Source: a virus. Taken from it: a DNA stretch of 64,000 bases. Below the pieces are notes generated by a model, which was given only the letters and a program-made list of their open reading frames with translations, searched no databases and was not told the origin of the DNA. The stretch is from the IMG/VR virus record IMGVR_UViG_3300032236_001082, positions 1 to 64,000 of that record. One strand, written 5' to 3'. The translations under genes were made by a program, and so were the position numbers. This document shows, piece by piece, positions 5,830 to 25,540 of this stretch; position 1 is the stretch's first letter, and each line of letters opens with the position of its first letter.

Positions 5830-6675
5830 TTATTCCTTCATGTCAGCAAAAAATGTAGAAGCTAATTCATAGCCTTTTAGTCCAGACTCCTGCATAATCT
5901 TTACAGCTTCTGGTGTAAACTGAGGGTTTGGCTTTAAGGGCTCTAGCCACTTTTTAACAGCAGCTTCAGACTTATCTCCAATTTGCTCATAGTACTCTGG
6001 GGTTTTATAATTATAAAAAGTGCCAGGATTGTCAATCGCTTTTAATGAAAAATTAGAAAACGCATATCTAATTCCAGAAGTAATTTCTCTTACTCCATGT
6101 GAATATGGATCAAATGCTGAATGGATTACAACGTCGCCTTTTTCTGGTTTATATTCAAAACACTCTTTATTATTTATTAACTGCCAAGCATCTTTTATTG
6201 TTCCATCTGGATTAACGTCTGGGTAAAATATTGCCCCGCCCTCATAATCTCCAAAATAAGCAACGACTCCATAATCTAATTCGCAGCAGGTCTTATAAGT
6301 ATCTGTTTGCGAAAGCAAATGGCATGCGCCCTTGCCTGGGCTATCTGAGTGAACAAACATGCCATTATCTCCAGGCTTAGTTTTTAAAATAGAAGCGGAA
6401 GGGTGAATAACCCAATCTGGCCCAATTAAATCGCCGATCTGTTCCCATACATCAATTAACTTTGGAGGAAGACCTGTTCCTTTACCCTCATACCAATCAA
6501 TTAAATTTAAAGGAGATTCTAAAATCTCTTCTTGCTCTGCGTTTAAAAAATCTTCTACAGATTTTATTAAATCTTCGCTTATAAACTTTTTAAATATAAA
6601 TATACCACTTTTTGTTCCGTAAGCATCAGTAAACGGAGATGGATTTATACAATCGGGTCTGTCGTAAAATTTCAT
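5830..6675 (-). CDS. 2OG-Fe(II) oxygenase (prolyl-4-hydroxylase-like)
   Basis: HSD...DYEGG.I.Y...P.KGD.V...H.V..I.SG.RY. Confidence 0.85.
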   Translation of the reverse strand: MKFYDRPDCINPSPFTDAYGTKSGIFIFKKFISEDLIKSVEDFLNAEQEEILESPLNLIDWYEGKGTGLPPKLIDVWEQIGDLIGPDWVIHPSASILKTKPGDNGMFVHSDSPGKGACHLLSQTDTYKTCCELDYGVVAYFGDYEGGAIFYPDVNPDGTIKDAWQLINNKECFEYKPEKGDVVIHSAFDPYSHGVREITSGIRYAFSNFSLKAIDNPGTFYNYKTPEYYEQIGDKSEAAVKKWLEPLKPNPQFTPEAVKIMQESGLKGYELASTFFADMKE

Positions 6676-6693
6676 AATTCCTCCAAAATCTAA

Positions 6694-7341
6694 TTATATC
6701 ATATTAATAGAATTGGTTGAAGTATATCTAACCCCACTCAATATTGGCTTTACCTGATGAACAAATGAAGCTGGAAACATTATTAAGCTACCAGCTTTAG
6801 GTTTTATTGTTATATTATGATCTGGGAAGTACAGCTCTCCACCTTCATAATTTTCATTTAAATAAGTTACAGTAGTAAAAGCTAGATTTGAATGCTCATA
6901 GCTGCTATCGGAATGTGGTCCCATGTAAGAGTTTGCATTCCATTTTCTGACTGGCAGATAAGAAACATCAAGTTGATACTTTGCTGGATCTAACGACGTA
7001 TGCTGATTGATATATTGGTTATAACACATTTCAGCTGCCATTTTTAATGTATTAACAGTGTACAAAACTTTTTGATTTAGCTTTGGACTGTTGCTTTTAT
7101 TTTTTACAGTTTCTGAAAGAATCATTTTTGAGTAACCGTAAAGAACTGATGGGTTGTTGCTTGCAGTCCATTCTTGCCATTTTGGAATATTAGTATGAGA
7201 GTCTGGGTCCGTGTCCAAATTTTCTATTAATTTAATTAAATCTTCTGGATAGCTAATAACATTATCCCAATACCAGATATCGTCATTTAAAACTTCAAGA
7301 TCAAACATTACATACTGCTTTTTAAACTTTACGTCTTCCAT
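6694..7341 (-). CDS. 2OG-Fe(II) oxygenase (prolyl-4-hydroxylase-like)
   Basis: HSD...YLNENYEGGELYF...KPKAGSLIMFP..FVHQV.PI.SG.RY. Confidence 0.9.
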   Translation of the reverse strand: MEDVKFKKQYVMFDLEVLNDDIWYWDNVISYPEDLIKLIENLDTDPDSHTNIPKWQEWTASNNPSVLYGYSKMILSETVKNKSNSPKLNQKVLYTVNTLKMAAEMCYNQYINQHTSLDPAKYQLDVSYLPVRKWNANSYMGPHSDSSYEHSNLAFTTVTYLNENYEGGELYFPDHNITIKPKAGSLIMFPASFVHQVKPILSGVRYTSTNSINMI

Positions 7342-7342
7342 C

Positions 7343-8086
7343 TTATCCCTCTACTTCTTGTGCTGGGTACTGATAGCCCGTAGGAGCCAATCTAAGACCC
7401 TTTTCTCTAATGTCTTCCCATTCTACCGCCTGCTCTGCTTGCATGGCTCTAACCTCTGCTAGCTCCTTTGCCCAGGCATCCCTGGTTTCTTGTGGGTAGT
7501 CTGACTCTTCACGATCATCAAAAAATGAACCTATGGTATATCTAGTTGATTTTTTAACTATGTCTACCTTGTGCATATTAGAATGACCTCCATGGAATGT
7601 TGCAAGCATTCCAGTTTCTGGGAGAATTGTTAAATTATGTTGTGGGAAAACTAATTCCCCTCCCTCAAAATCATCATTTAGATATAAGAATGTTGCGTAG
7701 CGACTTCTTGTAAATGCTCCCATGACTCCATCATTTGAACTATTGTCTGAATGTTCTGGGGCAAATGCTCCTGGCAACCAACGCTGGGTATGAAAACTAA
7801 TTCTAGATAACTGAGGTTCAGGTATCCCAGCATTTTCAGCAGTAGCAACTCTAAACCTTTGATAAAGATCTGAAAACCAATTATTAGGCAAGCCAAATTC
7901 TGCTAGTATTGGATCGTTATCTTCTGGATACCCAGATGAATAAGATTCGTAAAAAGAAATTGGTTTCCAAAAATTTCCTCTTATTTCATCTAATTTATTT
8001 AACAGATCTATAGTTTTTTTAGCTTCTTCTTTTGTAATAAAGTTTTTATAAATAGTTAAATCTGTTAATAACTTTTCTTTTTCCAT
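7343..8086 (-). CDS. 2OG-Fe(II) oxygenase (prolyl-4-hydroxylase-like)
   Basis: HSD...YLNDDFEGGELVF...H.V....STRY. Confidence 0.9.
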   Translation of the reverse strand: MEKEKLLTDLTIYKNFITKEEAKKTIDLLNKLDEIRGNFWKPISFYESYSSGYPEDNDPILAEFGLPNNWFSDLYQRFRVATAENAGIPEPQLSRISFHTQRWLPGAFAPEHSDNSSNDGVMGAFTRSRYATFLYLNDDFEGGELVFPQHNLTILPETGMLATFHGGHSNMHKVDIVKKSTRYTIGSFFDDREESDYPQETRDAWAKELAEVRAMQAEQAVEWEDIREKGLRLAPTGYQYPAQEVEG

Positions 8087-8922
8087 TACATGGCTCCTGC
8101 ATCTTGAGGATAAGCTTCTTCATAACTTACTGGTTTTCCATCTTTAAAATAAATCATAGTTCTTTTATTATCAAATTCAATTCTTTCATTTTCCATCTTA
8201 GCCCACTTATAAGCTCCGTATTTACGTTGATTTGCAATCCATTCAGGAGATCCTTCGTAAGAATGCATAACAAAGTTTCTAACAAAGAATTTGTTTCCAG
8301 TAGGAATTGTTTTAACACCATGATAGAAGGGTTCTCCAGAAGGAAATACCATTAGGTCTCCCGCTTTTGGTTTATGGTTTGTAACATCTCCGTTAACCCA
8401 AAACTCAACATCTCCTCCATCATAATTATCATTAATATAAAAAGTACAAGTAGTGTGGAATTTAGGACCTGGCATATCTTTTTCAGACACAATAAAATCT
8501 GTATGGTACTGCATTGTCATCTTGTTCTTTAAAACATCAACATCATTAAAGTATTTACAGTAAGAATGTCCACTAAAATAAGCATCTTCTGGCAATGTTC
8601 TTTCTATGCTAATATTATTAAAATAATGAGAAATAGCTTTATCATAAGCAGTTCTGATTTCTTCATCTAAATCTTTTTCATCTTTAAATTGCTGCTCTAG
8701 TACATTAGTTAAAGAATTTCCGTCTTTAGGTTGTGAGTAGGTTCCAAATGCTGACCAAGGGGTCCAAGCAGAAAGATAATAATCTCCAGATGCAAGCTCT
8801 TCTGATTTACGCATAGTCTCATAGGCTTTTGTTGGATCTTTAAGCATATTTCTATAGCATATCACTCCTGGGTATATCTCATCCCACTCTAAATCATTTA
8901 CATCTGTTCTTAAGTTAATCAT
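8086..8922 (-). CDS. 2OG-Fe(II) oxygenase (prolyl-4-hydroxylase-like)
   Basis: HTD...YINDNYDGG...KPKAGDLMVFPS...YHGV....G.K. Confidence 0.9.
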   Translation of the reverse strand: MINLRTDVNDLEWDEIYPGVICYRNMLKDPTKAYETMRKSEELASGDYYLSAWTPWSAFGTYSQPKDGNSLTNVLEQQFKDEKDLDEEIRTAYDKAISHYFNNISIERTLPEDAYFSGHSYCKYFNDVDVLKNKMTMQYHTDFIVSEKDMPGPKFHTTCTFYINDNYDGGDVEFWVNGDVTNHKPKAGDLMVFPSGEPFYHGVKTIPTGNKFFVRNFVMHSYEGSPEWIANQRKYGAYKWAKMENERIEFDNKRTMIYFKDGKPVSYEEAYPQDAGAM

Positions 8923-8924
8923 AT

Positions 8925-9671
8925 TTACTCCTGCTCCTTATTAAATAATTGCTTGTACTCTTCAGATTCAAACCCGCCACGATAACCTGGAGGTGGCTGC
9001 TTTTCTCCAGTATGCTTTTTGATATTCCAAAAAAACGGAGAAGTGAATCTATTACCAGATTTTACTGGGCGGACTCCGTGTGTATAAAATCTATCTCCTG
9101 GAAAAAAGTAAGCTGATCTTGGTGTTGGTTTAAATTCAAGTCCATGCTGAGGGAAGTATAGCTCTCCGCCTTCGTAATCATCATTAAAATAAAAAAGGCT
9201 GGCTATGTCATAGTATGGGAAATCATTAGGTCTACCCTGCTCTGCTCCGATATGAAATTCTTTATCAGCATGTGGTTCTTGTCTTGCTCCTACAGGCCAT
9301 TTTACAATTGCTGGTCCTGTTGCTTCTACCTCTACTTCAAAAAACTTTTCTACTTCTATTTTTAATCTATCTATCATTCCATAAATTAATTTAAGTATTG
9401 AAGGGTCTGACTTCATGAGAGAATCATAAGTACAAACACGATCATCCCAGATACTTGCCTGATACAAAACCAATCCATCTTCGTCGTAGCTGTCCTGGGT
9501 TACATCCCAGACTTTGTTATTCAAAGCAAAATTCATAAGCCTTTGCTGCTCTTCTTCTGTTAAAAAGTCTTCTAGCTCAACTATGTTTGCGGACGAGTTG
9601 CCAAAAAATCCAGAAGGAGTTATTGAAGTGGGTCTATTTTGCACCCAACTATTAGAATTTGTTTGATTCAT
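8925..9671 (-). CDS. 2OG-Fe(II) oxygenase (prolyl-4-hydroxylase-like)
   Basis: HAD...YFNDDYEGGELYF...HGVRPVKSGNRF. Confidence 0.9.
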   Translation of the reverse strand: MNQTNSNSWVQNRPTSITPSGFFGNSSANIVELEDFLTEEEQQRLMNFALNNKVWDVTQDSYDEDGLVLYQASIWDDRVCTYDSLMKSDPSILKLIYGMIDRLKIEVEKFFEVEVEATGPAIVKWPVGARQEPHADKEFHIGAEQGRPNDFPYYDIASLFYFNDDYEGGELYFPQHGLEFKPTPRSAYFFPGDRFYTHGVRPVKSGNRFTSPFFWNIKKHTGEKQPPPGYRGGFESEEYKQLFNKEQE

Positions 9672-10362
9672 TTTGTTTTCTTTCTATTGTAAAAGACAGG
9701 CTATCTGCTTCATGTTTGCCTATTTTATTGCCTAAATGATCTAAAGCATTTTTATACCAATGCGTCAATCTTTTATTAATTCTACCATACTCAAACATAG
9801 CATCAATATAATTAGAATCGTGGACTCTATCTATACTCTCATCTGACAGTATTATTTTAGCATTATTTAAATTAGAAACGGATATTGGCAAAACAGAAGC
9901 AATTGGGGTGCCTGCTGGGATTTTAATTATTTTGCCTGGGCTAGTTACTCTCCAAACAACATGAAGGTTGCCAGTATAAAATGATGAAGACAATATAGTT
10001 GTAAAGCATTGGGCACCATCTATAAATTGATTGGGTACTGGCATTACTAAAAGACTAGAGTCTGGGCTTGTTTTAAATACTAAATTAGTAACAAATCCAA
10101 TCACTCCACCGCCTCGACCAAAAAAACAATAATCTTTTCCCTCAAGTACCTCAATATCTCCATCTTCTCCTTGTGCAGAACTACCGTTCCAAACAAATGA
10201 AATGTCTTGATCAAAAGATATTCCATAACCAAGTTTATTAGTTAAAGTTACTGGCGGGCAATGATAGCCATCTTTATTTTGGTTCATCCAATCACGACTA
10301 ACTTCTAAAGGAAAGATATTAGTTTTTAATCCATTAATTTCATAAACATTTACAGTATTCAT
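9652..10362 (-). CDS. DUF6065-family protein
   Basis: RDWM....YHCPP....N..GY, F.T, PVPN..IDG, W..T.P, GTPIA..LP pattern; paralog of next gene. Confidence 0.7.
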   Translation of the reverse strand: MNTVNVYEINGLKTNIFPLEVSRDWMNQNKDGYHCPPVTLTNKLGYGISFDQDISFVWNGSSAQGEDGDIEVLEGKDYCFFGRGGGVIGFVTNLVFKTSPDSSLLVMPVPNQFIDGAQCFTTILSSSFYTGNLHVVWRVTSPGKIIKIPAGTPIASVLPISVSNLNNAKIILSDESIDRVHDSNYIDAMFEYGRINKRLTHWYKNALDHLGNKIGKHEADSLSFTIERKQNESNKF

Positions 10363-11051
10363 TTAACATCCAAGTCAAACTTTTTAACCTGATGGTAACC
10401 TAATTTTTGACCTAAATGATTTGTTGCATTGCGATACCAATCAGTCCATTTTCCTTGATTATTGATTTCAGCTCCAATAGCTGAGTAGTCTGAATTATCA
10501 GCATCTGGCATTTTTGCGTTAGAGATATCATCAAATAATATTTCTGAATTGTTTATTTCTGACAAATTTAAAGGAACAATTGCGATTACTGGGGTATTAG
10601 CCTTGATAGTAATTTCAACATTTGGTCGTGTTATTTGCCAAGCCACTGGTAGCTCTTTACTATAAAAAGAAGTTGTCATTAAAATAGAAAATGGAGATAC
10701 TCCATCTCTTGGGTAATTAGGTACTGGCATTTGAAACAAAGTTGTATCTTCATTTGTTCTAAACATTATTCCAGTATTAAAACTAATGGTTGCATTTGCT
10801 CTACCAGGAGATGCGTATTTATGTCCAGATAAAACTTTTACATGGCCTGGGTTGGCATCTGAAATCCCGTCCCAAATAAAAGTAATATCTTCTGGGAAAG
10901 AAATTCCCCAACCCATCTGATTAGTTAGGCTTACTGGAAAACAATGGTAGGCATGGGCATTTTGAGTATTATCCATCCATTCTCTTTTTACAGAAAGTGG
11001 TGACAAATTAGCACAAATCTCGCTAACCTTATATGCCTTAACCAAACTCAT
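10359..11051 (-). CDS. DUF6065-family protein
   Basis: REWMD....AYHCFPVSLTNQMGW, MFRT, PVPNYPRDGV, WQITRP. Confidence 0.75.
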   Translation of the reverse strand: MSLVKAYKVSEICANLSPLSVKREWMDNTQNAHAYHCFPVSLTNQMGWGISFPEDITFIWDGISDANPGHVKVLSGHKYASPGRANATISFNTGIMFRTNEDTTLFQMPVPNYPRDGVSPFSILMTTSFYSKELPVAWQITRPNVEITIKANTPVIAIVPLNLSEINNSEILFDDISNAKMPDADNSDYSAIGAEINNQGKWTDWYRNATNHLGQKLGYHQVKKFDLDVK

Positions 11052-11732
11052 CTACTTACCTTGCTCAACCCATCTTTGTCTCATCTGCATGAATTCATCA
11101 TTATGAGCATGGTCATTATAATCAAGCATTGTTACAATAGAATACTTTTGACCACTTTGGACTGGCTCAGCTACGTGAGAAAATAAATATGTTGAAGGGA
11201 ATATATAAAGATCTCCCGCTTGTGGTTTTATCTTTAGATCAAGCTTAGGGAAAGTTAGTTCCCCGCCTTCATAATCATCATTTGGATAACCAACTAAAGA
11301 AACAGTTGCACTGTAAGAAAATCCGTGGTCAGCATGCTCTTTAAAATGTTGGCCTGGGCCATACTTGATGCAATTCATGACTTCCCAATAATCCATTTTT
11401 ACAGAATACCTATTGCAGTAGTCTAAAGCTGGACCAGATTGAATATACTTTAAGTCTCTCCATAGATTAAGAACTTCTACCTGAGTATTATTAACTGGGT
11501 TTAAAACTTCATTAATTTTAATATCTTTGCAGTCTCTATAGCCTTGATTTACTGTTGAGTATCCAACAGAAGCTTCTTGCCAAAAATATCTAGCGTCATG
11601 CTCTTGTTGAGCTAATCTGCCAATGTTTTCTAGTCTATTTAAGATGTTTAATTCTTTCTTAAATACATTTCGATATACCCAAATCCCATGAAACAAATGT
11701 TCTTGAGATGTCCAAGTAGGTTGATTATTCAT
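11052..11732 (-). CDS. 2OG-Fe(II) oxygenase (prolyl-4-hydroxylase-like)
   Basis: KY.PGQHFKEHAD...NDDYEGGEL.F...FPS...SH.A.PV.SG.KY. Confidence 0.9.
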   Translation of the reverse strand: MNNQPTWTSQEHLFHGIWVYRNVFKKELNILNRLENIGRLAQQEHDARYFWQEASVGYSTVNQGYRDCKDIKINEVLNPVNNTQVEVLNLWRDLKYIQSGPALDYCNRYSVKMDYWEVMNCIKYGPGQHFKEHADHGFSYSATVSLVGYPNDDYEGGELTFPKLDLKIKPQAGDLYIFPSTYLFSHVAEPVQSGQKYSIVTMLDYNDHAHNDEFMQMRQRWVEQGK

Positions 11733-11782
11733 TTTCTCTTTCCTATCTATTATTTACAAATTATATCAATTAAAAATTTAAT

Positions 11783-12790
11783 TTAAAAGGTTACAATTCT
11801 TGGAGGTTCAAATCTAATATCATAAGCGTGTCTATAACCAATCTCTGCATCCATCTTGTCAAAGTTAGGCATATATTCACACCATTTTTTATTAAGACCA
11901 CTAAAATCACAATAAGCCAAAACTTTTTCAAGAGGAATTCCGCCACGGCCAGATAACAAATCATTTAATTTTAACATTGTTTCATCAGACTGTTTCCAAA
12001 AAGCTTCTTTATGCTGATCTGTCCATGGTCTTCTTGTTGCAGACAACATTTCAAAATTATTTTCTGGGTATTCTTTTCTTGTATCGTGTAAATACAAAAT
12101 TTTAGGTGTTGCAAACATTCTCCAACCAGAACACCAAGTCTTTACAGTAATATAAATTTCTTCAGCTTGATAGTTGATATCATCTTCAAAAGGCAACTCA
12201 TCAAAATAAGCTCTTTCACCAAAAACATAACTAGCTTGAAAATAAACAGCTTCATGAACATCTCCATCATTAGGGACTGGGACAATATCTGGCCAACCAT
12301 GTCCTGGGATATATCTATCTGCATCCAACTTTTGATGGTAAAGACTCATGGTTCTTCCAGTAGAAACATCTTCCACCTTTAAAGATCCATCTTGGTTAAA
12401 TTCAAACTCTGGTCCACAAAAAGCTAATATAGCTTTCCCGTCAGAAGTTTTAGCTTTTGCTTTGTCTAACTCTATAAAAGATTCAGCATCCCAATTTTTT
12501 GTAAACAAATTGTGTCCACAAGTTACAAGAACATGGTCATATTCAAAATCATTTTCCATAGTCCTTGCTCTTGACCACAAAACTCCTCTAAATTCGGACA
12601 AATCGTACTTCTTGTAAAGTAATTGATTTTCTGGAATAAAGCTTAAATCAGCATGAAGATCATCAGAATATTGTTCTGAGACTATAGAGAAAAATAGATT
12701 CTCTGGATTCTTAGCATTTTCATAACAGCTTCTTACAGATTCAGCAAGCTTTTTTTCTCTATACGCAACCATAGAAACTAATATTTTCAT
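11783..12790 (-). CDS. GT-A glycosyltransferase, GT60/Skp1-Hyp GlcNAc-transferase-like
   Basis: ILVSMVAYRE (cf. IFVSIASYRD), A.NPENL, GV.WSR, H..F..NWD, EEI..T...W..GW..F.......H. Confidence 0.72.
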   Translation of the reverse strand: MKILVSMVAYREKKLAESVRSCYENAKNPENLFFSIVSEQYSDDLHADLSFIPENQLLYKKYDLSEFRGVLWSRARTMENDFEYDHVLVTCGHNLFTKNWDAESFIELDKAKAKTSDGKAILAFCGPEFEFNQDGSLKVEDVSTGRTMSLYHQKLDADRYIPGHGWPDIVPVPNDGDVHEAVYFQASYVFGERAYFDELPFEDDINYQAEEIYITVKTWCSGWRMFATPKILYLHDTRKEYPENNFEMLSATRRPWTDQHKEAFWKQSDETMLKLNDLLSGRGGIPLEKVLAYCDFSGLNKKWCEYMPNFDKMDAEIGYRHAYDIRFEPPRIVTF

Positions 12791-12791
12791 T

Positions 12792-13514
12792 TTATTTATT
12801 TAACCTTTTCATAATAACAGCTTCGGTATCATACGAGCTGTGACAGTCACACATTTGATCTTTTGGGACTTCTGGTTTAGATATTGTACCAGTTTTTAAA
12901 TAATAACGAACATCCCCGTCTAAAGCATATTTCTTAAAATTATCTTCTATTTCTTTTTCATTTTTAGATTGAGCAAACCAATGGTCTGGGGTAACAAAAT
13001 GCAAGAATAATAAAGTAATATAAGAATCTTCATCATCTACAGGATATTCTGGTCTACCATGTACTTGCTGTTGACCATAAAATACTATAGCTGAATTTTC
13101 TTCTTCAGTATAAGTTTGACCATCAACAATCAATCCCCACTCTAAATTATTTTTTTCTATACAAACATCTATAGTTATTTGACAGGCATATTGATCCATA
13201 TGGGGCCACAAATTTGGAACTACCCCGTCTTTTTTTTGATATCTTGAAATAAAGTAATAAGCTTTTTGGATATCATCCCTGCCTACTATTTGTTTTGCTT
13301 TATTTAAAATAACTTGTTCCGTATCTGCATCAAACTCTATACCAGATTCCCATCTTCCTAAAGTAGTATGATATTTATGATTTTGATCTACACCTAATCC
13401 AATGGACAATACTTTATTTTTAATTAAACTAAATGTACCAAGATCAAACAAGCCATCAATTTTTGATGGCCTGTTTGGTTCTGACAATTTAAATCTTATT
13501 GGATCTAAATTCAT
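12792..13514 (-). CDS. Divergent 2OG-Fe(II) oxygenase-like protein
   Basis: Y...G..L.PHMD....T.D......W.L.V......AIVFYG....HGR; start overlaps FN3-gene stop. Confidence 0.7.
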   Translation of the reverse strand: MNLDPIRFKLSEPNRPSKIDGLFDLGTFSLIKNKVLSIGLGVDQNHKYHTTLGRWESGIEFDADTEQVILNKAKQIVGRDDIQKAYYFISRYQKKDGVVPNLWPHMDQYACQITIDVCIEKNNLEWGLIVDGQTYTEEENSAIVFYGQQQVHGRPEYPVDDEDSYITLLFLHFVTPDHWFAQSKNEKEIEDNFKKYALDGDVRYYLKTGTISKPEVPKDQMCDCHSSYDTEAVIMKRLNK

Positions 13515-14680
13515 TAATCTTGATTCTTGTCTGTAAGTTCCTCTTCAACAGCTTTTTTAATTGTTGCGCTGCCTGGTACTGGGAACACTTTGAACCCTGG
13601 TGGCGAGAAGAAGCCTGGAGGGCTGAAGAACCCTGGAGGGCTGAAGAACCCTGGAGGGCTGAAGAACCCTGGTGGCGAGAAGAAGCCTGGAGGGCTGAAG
13701 AACCCTGGAGGGCTGAAGAACCCTGGAGGGGCAAAGAACCCTGGTGGCGAGAAGAAGCCTGGAGGGCTGAAGAACCCTGGTGGGGCAAAGAAGCTTGGTG
13801 GTTGAGATGTAGCAGTGTTAGATGCTGCAGAGTAGTTACCAGTTCCATTTTGGTTAACTGCTGATATTTGATAAGTATTTGAGTTACCAGCAGTTTCTGC
13901 AAATGTGTAAGGGCTTGATGTTACTCCAGGAACTACTGTTCCTAAATTATCTTTGATATTATATGAAGTAATTGCATATCCACCATTTGCTGGAGCCGAG
14001 AATGTAACAATTTCTGAGTTTGTTCCATTAGAAGCAGTTGGTGCTGATGGTGTGTCTGGAACTGTTGTAGCGGTAATTGAATTAGATGCAGTTGAAGCTG
14101 CAGAGGTTCCATTTGCATTTGTAGCTGTCATTGTAAATGTATAGCTGGTTGCAGAGGCTAATCCAGTAACTGTGATTGGAGATGATGTTCCTGTTCCAGT
14201 TTGAGAACCGCTTGAAGTTACTGTATAACCAGTAATTGCAGATCCACCTGTTGCTCCCGCTGTAAACGGTACAGTAGCTGCTCCGTTATTAAAGGCACGG
14301 TTTAAACCAACATCGGATACTGAACCTACTACTGGGGCTTGTGGGACTGTAGTTGCTGTAATTGACCCTGATGTTGTTGATGGTCCTGAACCATATGAAT
14401 TTGAGGGGACAACTGTAAATGTATAAGAAGTTGCAGAAGCTAAACCAGTAAACTGGTAAGATGTTGATGATGTTGTTTGTGTTGTAGTTGCTGGTGTAGA
14501 AGTTATTGTATATAGTGTTGCTGCTATAGAGTTGCTTGGCAATGACCAAGATAAATTAGCTGCTCCGTTATTATAAGCTCTTCCTGTTCCTACGTCTGAT
14601 GCCGTTAATCCTGTTACTGCCAACGGCGCAACATGTTGATCTTGACCATCTGCTGAAAATCTACCTGCTTGTTTTGACAT
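13514..14680 (-). CDS. Fibronectin type III repeat virion protein with C-terminal PPGFFS tandem repeat
   Basis: Three FN3-like units (LSW, YTI/YTV, TGL.....YTF.V...N..G) followed by 12 hexapeptide repeats. Confidence 0.85.
   Translation of the reverse strand: MSKQAGRFSADGQDQHVAPLAVTGLTASDVGTGRAYNNGAANLSWSLPSNSIAATLYTITSTPATTTQTTSSTSYQFTGLASATSYTFTVVPSNSYGSGPSTTSGSITATTVPQAPVVGSVSDVGLNRAFNNGAATVPFTAGATGGSAITGYTVTSSGSQTGTGTSSPITVTGLASATSYTFTMTATNANGTSAASTASNSITATTVPDTPSAPTASNGTNSEIVTFSAPANGGYAITSYNIKDNLGTVVPGVTSSPYTFAETAGNSNTYQISAVNQNGTGNYSAASNTATSQPPSFFAPPGFFSPPGFFSPPGFFAPPGFFSPPGFFSPPGFFSPPGFFSPPGFFSPPGFFSPPGFFSPPGFKVFPVPGSATIKKAVEEELTDKNQD
13586..13801 (-). repeat. Coding 18-nt tandem repeat x12 (PP[G/S]FF[S/A], last unit PPGFKV) with 72-nt higher-order period
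   Basis: Variant GGCGAGAAGAAG recurs at 13602, 13674 and 13746. Confidence 0.95.
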
Positions 14681-14716
14681 GTTATTGTCCCCTTTTCTAT
14701 TTTAAATTATACCAGA

Positions 14717-17700
14717 TTATGCTGACAAATCACCGAAGAGTAGCCATGTGTTGGCTGCTGTCTTCATAATTGTTGCAACAGAACCTGTAGTTCTAAGCTT
14801 TAATCCTGGTGTTGACAAAATTGTTACACCAGCACCTGCTGCAAATGCTGCTCCAGTTCCTGAAGACTGATAGAAGTCAACGGATGTTCCAATTGGAGCT
14901 GTATTTGTTCCGTCTGGAGCGATTGTAAGAGTGTAAGCTCCTGCAATTGGCACCATCTGATCACGATATTGTGATGGGTAGTAAGTTCCATTTGAAGCAG
15001 CAACTGCTGTTGCAATTGTTGTAATTGATGGAACTGCTGCAACTGTCTGGATTGAACCATCTGAGAAGGTTATACCAGCAGAAGGAAGAGTAATTACTGG
15101 TGCGGTCAAAGTCTTATTTGTAAGAGTCTGTGAACCAGTTAATGTAGCTACTGTTGAATCTATAGCAATTGTAACTGCACCTGAACCATCAAATGATGAT
15201 CCTGAAAGTCCCGTTCCAATTGTAAGAGCATTTGTAGTAGATGCTTTTACAGTAATTGCTGCAGAACCATCGAATGCTACACCGTTAATATTACGAGCTG
15301 TGGCAAGCTTGGTTGCTGTGTCAGCATTACCAACTACTGCACCAGTGTGTGTTCCTGCTGTGTTGCCAGTCAAAGGACCAGTAAATGTTCCTGTAATTGT
15401 TTTATTTGTTAATGTTTGAGCTGTATTTAAGTCTACTGTTGTAGCAGTATCAATTGATAGCGTTGTTCCATTCTTTGACAAACCTGTACCAGCAAGTATT
15501 GCTTGAGCTGCGTTAAACTGAACATAGTTAATGTTATCTGTTCCAATTGCAACCGTTCCTGTGTTTGAAAGAATAAATCCTGTGCTGCCATAAAGAGTAC
15601 CAGAAGTAACAAAGTTAAAGTCTCCTCCAGCCATCTCTCCATTTGGATTGTTATCATCATCTGTTGCACGAGTTAATACCCAAGGAGCAGAAGATGAACC
15701 AACTGTTGTAAGTGTGTAAATACCATTTTGTTTTGCATCTGTCTGAGCTCTTACAAGAATTCTATCGCCTACTGAGAATCCTGAAATACCGTCTACAGTG
15801 CTAAATGCACGGTTTGTATCGGCTGTAAGGGTAGCTCCATATCCTGCTGTTCCATTTGAATATGTTGTAGAAAGATTTGCAGTTGTTGCAACTTTAGTTG
15901 CTGCGTGGAAGTTAATTCCTGAAGCTACGCCATCTACATAAAGCTTTGTTGCTGCATGTAGATCTGAAGTTGGAGCTCCAGCAAGAGTAAGTGTTCCTGT
16001 CATTGTTCCGCCAGCTAAAGATAACTTAGCATCAAGTGCTGTTTGAGTAGCTGTTGAGACTGGCTTGTTAGCATCAGATGTGTTATCTACGTTACCAAGA
16101 CCAACCATTGACTTTGTAATACCAGAAACTGTTCCAGTAAATGTTGGTGAAGCTAAAGGAGCTTTGGCAGCTAATGCTGTGTCAAGTCCTGAAATCTTAG
16201 ATGTTGCTATTGCAGCTGATGAAGAAATATCAGCGTTAACAATTGTTCCATCTGCAATCATTGTAGAAGTAACTGTTCCAGTATCTGTTGTTTTTACAAC
16301 GTTTGCTGTTGCAGTTGAAATTGCTGAGTTACGGTTGGTAACTTCTGTTGCAATCGCAGAATCTGTATAGGCTTCAGATGTGGAAATCGCTGCTGCTTTA
16401 GCAGTATCTGTATATCCTTCTGCAGTTGTTAATGATGTTGCAATTGCTGCATTTCTATTTGTAACTTCTGTTGAAATTTTACCATCAGTATAGGTTTCTG
16501 AGGTAGTGATTGCATTTGTAACGGCTGTTGCACGGTTAGTAGCTTCTGTGCTTACTGCGTTGTCTGCATATGTTTTTGTGGCAAGTGCTGATGTATCAGA
16601 AATGCCGTGAACATTTGTTGTTGCAGCAATATGATTTGAAGAAGTTGTTAATTGTGGTTGAATGCTTGCTGTTACTCCATGTACATAACCTAATTCTGTA
16701 GAAGTAGTTGTACCAATACTTGTTGTAGCTGGTAGTACCACAGTTCCGCTAAATGTTGGGCTATCTAGATTAGCTTTGAGTCCAAGAGCAGTATTTAATC
16801 CTGTTACTTGATCTTCTGTAATGCTAATAATTCTGTCTCCAGAAATACTTGCTACAGCAATTTTACTTCCGTCAACATCTGCAATCTGAAGATTGTGGAT
16901 GGTTCCGCTTGTAATCTTGGTACCGTCAACAGTTCCGTTTTTAAGAACTATACCGTCCAAAGAGCTTTCGCTTGCTGTTATTGTTCCCGTAAATGTAGGA
17001 GCAGATTTTGTTGCATATATTCCTGCTGCATTTGAAGCTGCAAGGCTAATTGCAGATGCTTTAGCTGAATCTGTGTAGGTATTTGCAGATGTAAGTGTTG
17101 TTTGATCATTTGTATCTACATAAGCTTTTGTAGCAGCATCTGTATTAAGTGTTGGGGTAGCTAAATCTTTTACTTTGTGTCCGCCCATTGCTAGGTCACC
17201 AGACATTGTATCTCCAGCCTTTGCAACTTTACCAGATACGGTAGTTGCAAGAGCGGAAGCAGTGCTTTCATCAGTAGCAAAGTGATCTGCTATCTCCCTA
17301 AGAGTATCAAGTGCAGCTGGGGCACCGTTAATAAGGTTAGAAATCGCTGTATCAGTGTAGCCTTCAGCTGTTGAAATAGCTTCTATCTTTTTAGTATCAG
17401 CATATGATTCTGATGTTGTAATAGCTTGAGATTTGGCTGTTGCAATTTCAGTTGTAATAGTTGCGTGAAGAGCAGTATCTGCTGTTGTAGCAAAATCTTC
17501 TGCTTGGCTTAAGGTATCAACGCTTTTTGAAGAAATTGCAGTATTTCTATTTGTAACTTCAGTTGATATAGCTGCATCTGTATAGTTTTCTGCAGTTGTA
17601 ATTGCATCTGATATATCTGTAGATGTTTGTGAAGCTAATCCAGATAAATCTGCAGCATCTGCTGCTGTATATCCAAGGGCATGGTTAACATCATAAGCAG

Positions 17701-17914
17701 TAAGATCTGTTCCGAGCCCAGTTGCAATTGCAGCTTGAAGCTGAGCTGGGGTAATTGTTGCATATCCTAGTGCGGTCCATGTTGATGTACCATCACCAAC
17801 TTTAATTTTCTTTGTGTCTGACTCATAGCCAGCTTCGCCTGCTGCCAGGACGGGATTTACGGAAGTCCAATCTGCTGCTGTACCTCTACGTAGTTGAATT
17901 CTTACTGTTGACAT
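14717..17914 (-). CDS. Long tail fibre / receptor-binding protein with Mtd-N-like N-terminus
   Basis: RIQLRRGTAADWTSVNPVLAAGE.GYE.DT..IK.GDG; AATK.YVD, LGNVDNTSD..KP, P.FTGTV fibre repeats. Confidence 0.85.
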   Translation of the reverse strand: MSTVRIQLRRGTAADWTSVNPVLAAGEAGYESDTKKIKVGDGTSTWTALGYATITPAQLQAAIATGLGTDLTAYDVNHALGYTAADAADLSGLASQTSTDISDAITTAENYTDAAISTEVTNRNTAISSKSVDTLSQAEDFATTADTALHATITTEIATAKSQAITTSESYADTKKIEAISTAEGYTDTAISNLINGAPAALDTLREIADHFATDESTASALATTVSGKVAKAGDTMSGDLAMGGHKVKDLATPTLNTDAATKAYVDTNDQTTLTSANTYTDSAKASAISLAASNAAGIYATKSAPTFTGTITASESSLDGIVLKNGTVDGTKITSGTIHNLQIADVDGSKIAVASISGDRIISITEDQVTGLNTALGLKANLDSPTFSGTVVLPATTSIGTTTSTELGYVHGVTASIQPQLTTSSNHIAATTNVHGISDTSALATKTYADNAVSTEATNRATAVTNAITTSETYTDGKISTEVTNRNAAIATSLTTAEGYTDTAKAAAISTSEAYTDSAIATEVTNRNSAISTATANVVKTTDTGTVTSTMIADGTIVNADISSSAAIATSKISGLDTALAAKAPLASPTFTGTVSGITKSMVGLGNVDNTSDANKPVSTATQTALDAKLSLAGGTMTGTLTLAGAPTSDLHAATKLYVDGVASGINFHAATKVATTANLSTTYSNGTAGYGATLTADTNRAFSTVDGISGFSVGDRILVRAQTDAKQNGIYTLTTVGSSSAPWVLTRATDDDNNPNGEMAGGDFNFVTSGTLYGSTGFILSNTGTVAIGTDNINYVQFNAAQAILAGTGLSKNGTTLSIDTATTVDLNTAQTLTNKTITGTFTGPLTGNTAGTHTGAVVGNADTATKLATARNINGVAFDGSAAITVKASTTNALTIGTGLSGSSFDGSGAVTIAIDSTVATLTGSQTLTNKTLTAPVITLPSAGITFSDGSIQTVAAVPSITTIATAVAASNGTYYPSQYRDQMVPIAGAYTLTIAPDGTNTAPIGTSVDFYQSSGTGAAFAAGAGVTILSTPGLKLRTTGSVATIMKTAANTWLLFGDLSA

Positions 17915-23605: not shown

Positions 23606-25540
23606 TCAGTTCTGGCCAATGTCTACAATTTCACATTCTCCAGAAACGCAAGCCAAAGCCTGAGATCCAGTTGTAGAGTCTTCAGTTTCATATAAAGAAA
23701 GGCCTTGCCACTGAATAGACTTTGGCATTTTAGCCACAAGTGCCTCATAGCCATCCTTGTCAACTTCTTGATACGGGGCTTGAACATAAGTGTGCTCTGA
23801 ATAAGGCAAGAATGAAATTCCAGAAACCTCATCAAAATGCTTGTATACCCAAGCTCCAACTTCCATCCATTCATCTTCTTTTACAGAGACTGTAATTGAT
23901 GGTTTATGCTCACACCAGTGTCTTTGATAAGTTAGCCAGATTTCTAGTTGCTGAATAGCAGTTAGCTTGTCTCTAGTAATTGCATTCTTTGGAGCTTTGA
24001 CTGGGAATGAGAAAACAGATGTTGCATCTGGCTTCATAACGTCATCCTCAGTAGGAATTCCAGAATCAATTAAGAACTTTGTAATTGGATCTTTTTTATC
24101 CCCACGAACTGTGCGAATATAATAATCTGAATGCCATGGATGCATTCCTGAACTCACCCCGACCAATTGGGACACTGTGCCTGAAGGCTTAACGCATGTT
24201 ACTGCTGCTGAGGCGGGAATCCCAATTTTCTCTGCCTCTTCAATATTAACCTGAACAGCATACTCACGAAGTCTATCAAGAGCATCAGCCAGTTTATCCA
24301 TTCCACTTTGTCCAGAAAAGAACTTATTTCCAAACTGACCAGTTAAAGAAACTCCAAGCAGTCTTTCTTCTTCTGTATTATCTTTCCAAATTTTACGAAT
24401 ATATTTAAAGTCTGTAAGGGTTGACTGCCATGTTCCAAGAATAGAAGCAAGTCTAACCTTTTTAGCAACAGTCTCTGGAGTATCGTCTTCACGAAGAACA
24501 ACTTCAGACAAGTTGCAGAACTGATAAGGACGCAAAATAATTTCAGAGCAAGGGTTTGTTCCGTAATGAATATCAGCACTACGTCTTCCATATTTTGCTG
24601 CCTGTGCTTGAGCTGCTGCTACGTTGTAGATTCCACGCTCTCCAGATTTTGAATCATACAAAGATTTCCATTCAGCAATAAATTGCTGCATCTCTGGTTT
24701 GCGAGAATAAGCTACTGAGTTGTTTGATAACGCACGTTGAGAATTCTTTTCCCACCAATTACCAGCTTTTGCTTGAGCCATTTCAATATCGTTAATATTA
24801 GACAATGAAATCATTGCTGAACGACGAACGCCTCCAACAACAACAACTTCGCCAATTTTACACATTAAATCATGACACTCAATTGGTTTTAATTGACGAC
24901 CAAGTGCGCCTTTAAAAATTTGAACACTAAAATCAAAAAGATTAACTAATGGTTGTGGACCAGAAGATCTTCCACCCATAGTTTTAAGTCTAGCTCCTGC
25001 TGGACGAACTTTGCTTACATCAATTTGTGGAATTTGTCCTGCCCAAAGCAAAGACAAAAATTCACGATAAGCTTTTGCCCAGCCTTCTTTAGAATCTCCA
25101 ACGGAAATTACTGTATTTGACTTTTCTAATGTTTCGGGAAGGGCTGGAAGTTTGTTGATGTACTTATACTCAACAGAGAATCCAACTCCAGTACCGCACA
25201 TAAGAATATACATAGCTTCATCAAATGAACGAGCATTATCTACTGGAAGAAAAGCACAGTTATATCCAGAAACATTTTCTCTTTCTAATGCAGGTCCTGC
25301 AGTCATAACAGAACGCATTGATGGCATAACATTACGGTTAAACACTGCTTCTCTTAGATCTGCTAAATCTTTATCGTTAGGAACAAAGCCATGTTTTTCA
25401 CGCAACTGAATAACCATAAAATCAAAATAACGATCTACGGTTTCTCCCCAAGTTTCTCTACGATTTTCTTTTTCTAACCATCTTGCATAGCGAGACAATG
25501 CAATAAAGTTTTCATACGGGTTTTCAATTGCTCTAGACAT
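23606..25540 (-). CDS. nrdJ: Class II (adenosylcobalamin-dependent) ribonucleotide reductase
   Basis: PSMR, YNC, CGTGVGFS, GGVRRSA, TNPCSEI, CNL, TCVKPSGT, C-terminal ACVSGEC. Confidence 0.93.
   Translation of the reverse strand: MSRAIENPYENFIALSRYARWLEKENRRETWGETVDRYFDFMVIQLREKHGFVPNDKDLADLREAVFNRNVMPSMRSVMTAGPALERENVSGYNCAFLPVDNARSFDEAMYILMCGTGVGFSVEYKYINKLPALPETLEKSNTVISVGDSKEGWAKAYREFLSLLWAGQIPQIDVSKVRPAGARLKTMGGRSSGPQPLVNLFDFSVQIFKGALGRQLKPIECHDLMCKIGEVVVVGGVRRSAMISLSNINDIEMAQAKAGNWWEKNSQRALSNNSVAYSRKPEMQQFIAEWKSLYDSKSGERGIYNVAAAQAQAAKYGRRSADIHYGTNPCSEIILRPYQFCNLSEVVLREDDTPETVAKKVRLASILGTWQSTLTDFKYIRKIWKDNTEEERLLGVSLTGQFGNKFFSGQSGMDKLADALDRLREYAVQVNIEEAEKIGIPASAAVTCVKPSGTVSQLVGVSSGMHPWHSDYYIRTVRGDKKDPITKFLIDSGIPTEDDVMKPDATSVFSFPVKAPKNAITRDKLTAIQQLEIWLTYQRHWCEHKPSITVSVKEDEWMEVGAWVYKHFDEVSGISFLPYSEHTYVQAPYQEVDKDGYEALVAKMPKSIQWQGLSLYETEDSTTGSQALACVSGECEIVDIGQN

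Follow-up and report, generated by a model that had tools for sequence, protein, structure and literature searches.

Why would a bacteriophage carry a gene for a GT60-like glycosyltransferase, a relative of the enzyme that glycosylates hydroxyproline in protist Skp1, and why does this gene read Cys-Gly-His where the family leads one to expect Asp-Ser-His? The gene in question lies at positions 11783-12790 of the window, by which we mean the 64-kb stretch analyzed here, the first part of the 112,158-bp virus record IMGVR_UViG_3300032236_001082 of IMG/VR. The reading we favor, to which we assign a probability of about 0.5, is that the product is an active polypeptide glycosyltransferase with a Cys/His/His metal site, acting together with a hydroxylase on Pro-Phe-rich (PPGFF) tails. 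It would be a cytoplasmic, retaining-type GT-A enzyme of the GT60/GT27 lineage whose nucleotide-sugar is bound via a metal ion coordinated by Cys91, His93 and His235, where the family has Asp, His and His. With the abutting upstream 2-oxoglutarate (2OG) oxygenase it would form a two-gene module. That oxygenase, the neighboring prolyl 4-hydroxylase (P4H)-type oxygenases, or both would hydroxylate prolines in the PPGFF tails of the phage's fiber-associated proteins, and the transferase would then add a sugar, most likely an N-acetylhexosamine from a uridine diphosphate (UDP)-sugar, to the new hydroxyl before virion assembly.

Family and fold, as computed here, point to a protein-modifying enzyme. 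An earlier note, made from the letters of the window alone, had called the gene GT60-like and phage-encoded, citing the strings VSMVAYRE and VLVTCGHNLF (12503-12532) and a later EE/W/GW/H pattern. All of these are present, the last as QAEEI...GW...LHDT (12080-12169), and the assignment is borne out by the completeness of the virus record and by a Pfam hidden Markov model (HMM) search, in which PF11397, 'Glycosyltransferase (GlcNAc)' (GlcNAc, N-acetylglucosamine), the GT60 family model, matched at 58.5 bits (cut-off 21) with an E value of 1.1e-15. The match falls in two stretches (profile positions 2-45 and 97-278), and no other Pfam family is found for the protein at E <= 1. PHROGs likewise returns a glycosyltransferase family, PF11397 is present in 70 of 70 homologues, and a family search of 1.84 billion proteins gave 2572 matches at E <= 1e-3. 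Among 50,697 phage records the protein has four PF11397-like matches, all in Xanthomonas or Stenotrophomonas jumbo phages, all with DSH and all at 21-23% identity. In one of these phages, XacN1, the DSH-type GT60-like gene (ORF334-333) codes for 150 additional C-terminal residues and precedes a carbamoyltransferase gene, near DNA polymerase and RNase H genes.

An AlphaFold2 model built with 20 homologues as input has a mean pLDDT of 92.6, and its first beta strand begins at residue 3. The best 50 Foldseek matches of this model are all GT27 polypeptide N-acetylgalactosamine (GalNAc)-transferases, and a profile from 45 family members recovered GT27 chains only from the whole PDB (E 1.7e-5 and 1.9e-4). 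The family profile is required for this result, since a phmmer search of the PDB with the single sequence returned nothing beyond a chance match (E 0.66). GT27 and GT60 are sister families, both with DxH instead of DxD (PMC7185993). The protein has a GT-A fold with GT27 as its nearest structural family; it is not itself a GT27 member, having no PF00535 match, no ricin-type lectin domain and, within its 335 residues, no membrane anchor. With GT27 enzymes, such as human GalNAc-T2 (2ffu/4d0z) and T. gondii GalNAc-T3, it shares only 10-13% identity. The earlier note had allowed that the best structural matches might instead be polysaccharide or DNA glycosyltransferases; since they are not, the protein-glycosyltransferase reading survives.

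What separates the phage protein from both families is the first position of the metal motif. The placement of CGH at the DSH position, proposed in the earlier note, is upheld by three independent alignments. In the first, the homologues from Xanthomonas phage XacN1 and Stenotrophomonas phage RAS14 align QLDSHHRF with VTCGHNLF. In the second, made with the best 150 representatives of the 1.84 billion proteins, DSH occurs in 140 domains and DAH in 39, CGH or CAH is confined to the phage clade to which this transferase belongs, and the few cases of QAH, HAH or HPH lie in N-terminal domains of multidomain proteins. The third, between the family profile and solved GalNAc-transferases, equates the family's 'iDsH' with DAH of T. 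gondii GalNAc-T3 and human GalNAc-T7, 'GEEI' with 'GGEN', and 'vyH' with 'VGH', which contains the second metal-binding His. In the structural model C91 is the last residue of beta strand 86-91, where the aspartate of DxD classically lies. Of the Asp-x-His signature of GT60, the His is kept (H93) and the Asp is replaced by Cys91, and this holds for the whole phage clade.

The clade was defined by 117 distinct sequences drawn from 70 protein clusters and 80 IMG/VR loci, with identity down to 34%. C-G/A-H is found in 115 of the 117, the remaining two reading GGH and CGGH, and H93, W100-D101, E210-E211, H235 and R74 are invariant throughout. A near-universal motif among invariant catalytic columns indicates that it has been selected and has not decayed. 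In a quick IQ-TREE maximum likelihood tree all 21 Cys-x-His rows lie on one side of a branch with an SH-aLRT support of 98, and the sister lineage (P0079, P0085) has DSH, a topology compatible with a single Asp-to-Cys change. The simplest reading of Cys91 is that it may complete a Cys/His/His metal site favoring a softer ion than Mn2+. We know of no GT-A glycosyltransferase for which a thiolate metal ligand has been described.

The same columns bear on whether the protein is an enzyme at all. A catalytically dead or altered GT-A fold could bind hydroxylated repeats or nucleotide-sugar in a lectin- or chaperone-like role, as COSMC does for T-synthase, and the earlier note had offered a catalytically changed reader of hydroxylated repeats as an alternative. 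Pseudo-glycosyltransferases that have lost DxD exist (PMC7185993), and the phage protein lacks the usual first ligand of the metal motif, a position at which one relative has Gly. However, the near-constant Cys is the pattern of a used site, the invariant residues listed above fit an active enzyme, and the EE pair is kept, whereas COSMC has lost both DxD and xED. We therefore regard a non-catalytic role as very improbable, and infer that the enzyme is active.

The case for a coupled hydroxylase begins with the oxygenase gene that abuts the transferase gene. In its product H105-x-D107...H152 is invariant among 17 homologues, and profile-profile alignment with the P4H-type oxygenases that follow the transferase gene (the cassette oxygenases) retains this triad (E 6.6e-4). 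The structure model (pLDDT 91.7) has the prolyl hydroxylase of chlorovirus PBCV-1 (vCPH, 5c5t) as its first fold match and Dictyostelium PhyA as its second. The product is a divergent 2OG oxygenase, prolyl-hydroxylase-like by its modeled fold, with proline as its candidate target.

The two genes are inherited together. Of 80 loci with the transferase fetched from IMG/VR, 16 distinct ones encode a protein at least 46% identical to it and form what we term the close subclade. An oxygenase of the abutting type lies directly upstream of the transferase in 13 of the 15 close loci with enough flank, P4H-type oxygenases and DUF6065 are present in all 16, and a Pro-rich repeat protein in 14 of the 16. 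In a second subclade the neighbors are (VTPP)n or (IIAVTPP)n proteins, again with oxygenases and DUF6065.

A further link comes from protein fusions in distant, bacterial-type relatives. Outside the clade, the closest relatives (E 1e-89 to 1e-40) are 900-2460 residues long and have 2-4 PF11397 domains each. PF13640 (P4H-type) domains are also present in four of the five such giants examined, some with an AhpC/TSA peroxiredoxin domain as well. Among 53 long distant relatives, 12 contain a domain matching an HMM of the phage cassette oxygenases, with E values down to 7e-32. Most GT60 domains of the giants read DSH or DAH, with QAH, HAH or HPH in some N-terminal ones, and their activities are fused whereas those of the phage are encoded by separate genes. 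Fusions of this Rosetta-stone kind indicate that the GT60 and oxygenase types are functionally linked.

If the transferase acts after a hydroxylase, the Pro-rich tails are the candidate acceptors. Only two Pro-rich open reading frames occur in the genome and both encode PPGFF proteins. The first, a protein with FN3 domains, lies in the window directly upstream of the oxygenase-transferase pair. The second, of 785 residues, is encoded outside it (genome positions 90783-93140, minus strand); it has (VTPA/VTPS)n stretches and ends in nine PPGFF(T/A/S) repeats with an FPVPGS-acidic tail like that of the first. Behind its gene come genes for a PF13640 oxygenase, a GT61 (PF04577) glycosyltransferase, a JmjC-like protein and a further 2OG oxygenase, so that an oxygenase and a glycosyltransferase follow both PPGFF genes of the genome. 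In every homologue the repeats are followed by a conserved short PP-G/R-F-x-V/I-F-S/P-V/I-D/P motif and then an acidic tail (window 13514-13600), an end that the modifying enzymes might use for docking or recognition. In the transferase's close relatives the repeat tails are of the form (PPFF/PPYF/PFF)n with an occasional Arg and zero Ser or Thr. If the tail is the acceptor in those phages, the sugar carrier can therefore only be hydroxyproline or Tyr. The earlier proposal of a protein O-glycosyltransferase with altered metal or donor use is thus partly supported: the protein-directed part is backed by the GT27 matches, hydroxyproline as acceptor fits the context of an abutting prolyl-hydroxylase-like gene and of relatives' tails that lack Ser and Thr, and GlcNAc as the sugar and a change in metal or donor use are conjectural.

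Several observations weigh against a hydroxylase-coupled transferase with tails of this kind as its target. In the fold matches of the abutting oxygenase, other 2OG oxygenases stand close behind the prolyl hydroxylases (E 4e-7 to 1e-5) with no clear separation. The clade member with Gly in place of Cys means that the Cys may be dispensable. In the window the sixth repeat position is Ser, Thr or Ala and the FN3 part is Ser/Thr-rich, so that direct glycosylation of Ser or Thr is possible in this phage. A mucin-type enzyme, like the GT60 enzyme of T. cruzi and those of GT27, could then act directly on Ser or Thr of the FN3 or repeat proteins with the oxygenases unrelated to it. That view gains from the existence of a Thr-directed enzyme within GT60 (PMC6939170), from GT27 being the nearest structural family, from the (VTPP)n proteins near the transferase in other subclades, and from an oxygenase core that usually occurs without the transferase. 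We nevertheless consider it unlikely, as it leaves aside the tails of the closest subclade without any Ser or Thr, the co-inheritance of the transferase with a prolyl-hydroxylase-like gene, and the distant relatives in which GT60 domains are fused to oxygenases of this type.

Gene context adds to these contrary points. In the largest and more distant Cys-x-His subclade (39-45% identity) the transferase lies between Pol III alpha, RecA, Cas4-like nuclease and RuvC genes on one side and terminase on the other, and most of these loci have no P4H-type oxygenase within 10 kb. A gene like the abutting oxygenase is found about 2.7 kb upstream in some of them only, and a PEPT-rich PA14 protein is encoded 5.3 kb downstream. 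The hydroxylase link holds strongly in the subclade of the window's transferase and only weakly across the clade as a whole. Such a position in the replication and packaging region, and that of the XacN1 homologue near DNA polymerase and carbamoyltransferase genes, would suit a target other than a phage protein: proteins of the host, a glycan of the cell envelope, or bases of the phage DNA after hydroxylation by an oxygenase. Pairs of phage oxygenases and glycosyltransferases that hypermodify DNA are known. This alternative strikes us as quite unlikely, since the nearest structures are GalNAc-transferases that bind peptides, the cassette oxygenases are of the P4H type (PF13640), and the gene of the window sits in a fiber module behind a repeat protein. 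DNA modification as the main explanation was considered separately for the whole genome and rejected: Tet_JBP reached 15.6 bits against a cut-off of 34.9, and neither a thymidylate-synthase-like hydroxymethylase nor a GT2 enzyme was found.

A census of the oxygenase core cassette further limits the role of the transferase. The core occurs in hundreds of phage contigs. Relatives of the oxygenase at 8925-9671 lie in more than 571 viral stretches; of the best 80 of these, almost all have the core order repeat protein, oxygenase, DUF6065, oxygenases. Where 5 kb or more of upstream flank is available, only 1 of 41 core-cassette loci has the transferase, which together with its abutting oxygenase is therefore an optional two-gene add-on. 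The core chemistry, hydroxylation, is independent of the transferase, which may serve another acceptor. The add-on nonetheless sits precisely where the repeat-protein gene meets the core cassette, and this position argues for tailoring of the repeat protein. In several core-cassette loci a second protein, (FAPPVFF)n, is encoded about 7.6 kb upstream, on the far side of the fiber gene. Taken to its full extent, the favored reading becomes a phage system for hydroxyproline O-glycosylation, an optional module that would decorate Pro-Phe tails through a Cys-His-His site in which a softer metal (Fe, Co or Zn) perhaps replaces Mn; in this complete form it is a tentative proposal.

Among known systems the closest parallel is Gnt1 of Dictyostelium and Toxoplasma, the UDP-GlcNAc:hydroxyproline polypeptide alpha-GlcNAc-transferase of GT60, which acts on Skp1 after the prolyl hydroxylase PhyA (PMC6939170). 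Compared through the family model and description, both are soluble, cytoplasmic PF11397 proteins without a lectin domain, and each is paired with a prolyl-hydroxylase-like 2OG oxygenase, PhyA itself being the second-best fold match of the phage neighbor. They differ in the Cys that replaces the Asp of DxH, in the candidate acceptor, a fiber-associated repeat tail instead of a single Skp1 proline, and in the bacteriophage setting. Chlorovirus PBCV-1 similarly encodes a P4H-type enzyme, vCPH, alongside virus-encoded Pro-rich repeats, but it is a virus of eukaryotes, and we know of no dedicated hydroxyproline glycosyltransferase coupled to vCPH. In mycobacteriophages, phage-encoded glycosyltransferases O-glycosylate capsid and tail-tube subunits (echoed in PMC11256854). 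Common to that case and the one proposed here are viruses related to actinophages, phage-encoded enzymes and the phage's own virion proteins as targets. To our knowledge, no hydroxylases are involved in mycobacteriophage virion glycosylation and no PF11397 enzyme is known there.

Hydroxyproline glycosylation has not been reported for bacterial viruses, and the new elements at this locus are a Cys-x-His site in a transferase of the GT60/GT27 lineage and a putative phage hydroxylation-glycosylation module. If the proposed mechanism is correct, hydroxyproline glycosylation, so far known from plants, algae and protist Skp1, would extend to bacterial viruses and would provide a new route for tuning phage fibers. 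The function of viral P4H has been called cryptic, though P4H genes are among the most abundant 'auxiliary' genes of aquatic viromes (PMC9301287). At this locus substrate and enzymes form a concrete, testable set of three small soluble proteins: repeat tail, hydroxylase and transferase. With its conserved Cys at the first metal-ligand position, the clade is also a natural experiment on how enzymes of the GT27/GT60 lineage bind metal and donor.

Table 1. Features of the glycosyltransferase locus, with window coordinates, and related fusion proteins
Feature	Position in window, or protein	Strand	Basis or remark
GT60-like (PF11397) GT-A glycosyltransferase, 335 residues, soluble, without lectin domain	11783..12790	minus	open reading frame, Pfam, PHROGs, model, fold matches
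VSMVAYRE, first beta strand of the nucleotide-binding half; family consensus SYRD/AYRE	12755..12778	minus	sequence, alignment, model
C91-G92-H93, end of strand 86-91, in the GT60/GT27 Asp-x-His (Mn2+ ligand) columns	12512..12520	minus	alignments, model
E210-E211, invariant; align with GE of WGGEN in GalNAc-transferases	12158..12163	minus	alignment, profile
H235, invariant; in the column of the C-terminal metal-binding His of GalNAc-transferases	12086..12088	minus	alignment, profile
Divergent 2OG-Fe(II) oxygenase, 240 residues; stop abuts transferase start; co-inherited with transferase	12792..13514	minus	H105-x-D107...H152 invariant
FN3-domain protein with 12 C-terminal PPGFF(S/A) repeats, then an acidic tail; candidate acceptor	13514..14680	minus	
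Tail fiber (Mtd_N domain), directly upstream of repeat protein	14717..17914	minus	
P4H-type 2OG-Fe(II) oxygenase (PF13640)	11052..11732	minus	best solved relatives Bacillus anthracis P4H, PBCV-1 P4H
Two tandem DUF6065 genes, constant in oxygenase core cassette	9652..11051	minus	
P4H/PKHD-type 2OG-Fe(II) oxygenase, most conserved core-cassette gene	8925..9671	minus	PF13640
Four further PF13640-type oxygenase paralogues, one below cut-off	5830..8922	minus	
Giant GT60-oxygenase proteins (one or two P4H-type domains)	P0072-P0075, P0081, P0087, P0088, P0093, P0099, P0106, P0108, P0111, P0121		

The virus itself is complete, with direct terminal repeats (CheckV 100%) and a G+C content of about 37%. 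Its portal is about 50% identical to the portals of Streptomyces phages of about 127 kb, which makes the virus an uncultured relative of actinophages. A megablast search of window positions 8900-14700 against the 50,697 phage records gave zero matches, so that no close cultured relative is known. Of the listed sequencing data sets, only the probable source, a lake metagenome, contains the stretch, and no RNA set does. Along the minus strand the genes run fiber, FN3/repeat protein, divergent oxygenase, glycosyltransferase, oxygenase, two DUF6065 genes, oxygenase and four oxygenase paralogues (Table 1). Alignment of DUF6065 with the oxygenase family by hhalign showed no relation (E 0.33), and in the literature searched DUF6065 appears in no paper and PF11397 in a single, unrelated one. 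In the whole 112-kb genome PF13640 has 13 matches, 11 of them above the curated cut-off, and up to 12 consecutive oxygenase paralogues occur in relatives. Elsewhere in the window, the open reading frame at 23606-25540 has matches like those of a class II (B12-dependent) ribonucleotide reductase (PF02867, PF21995).
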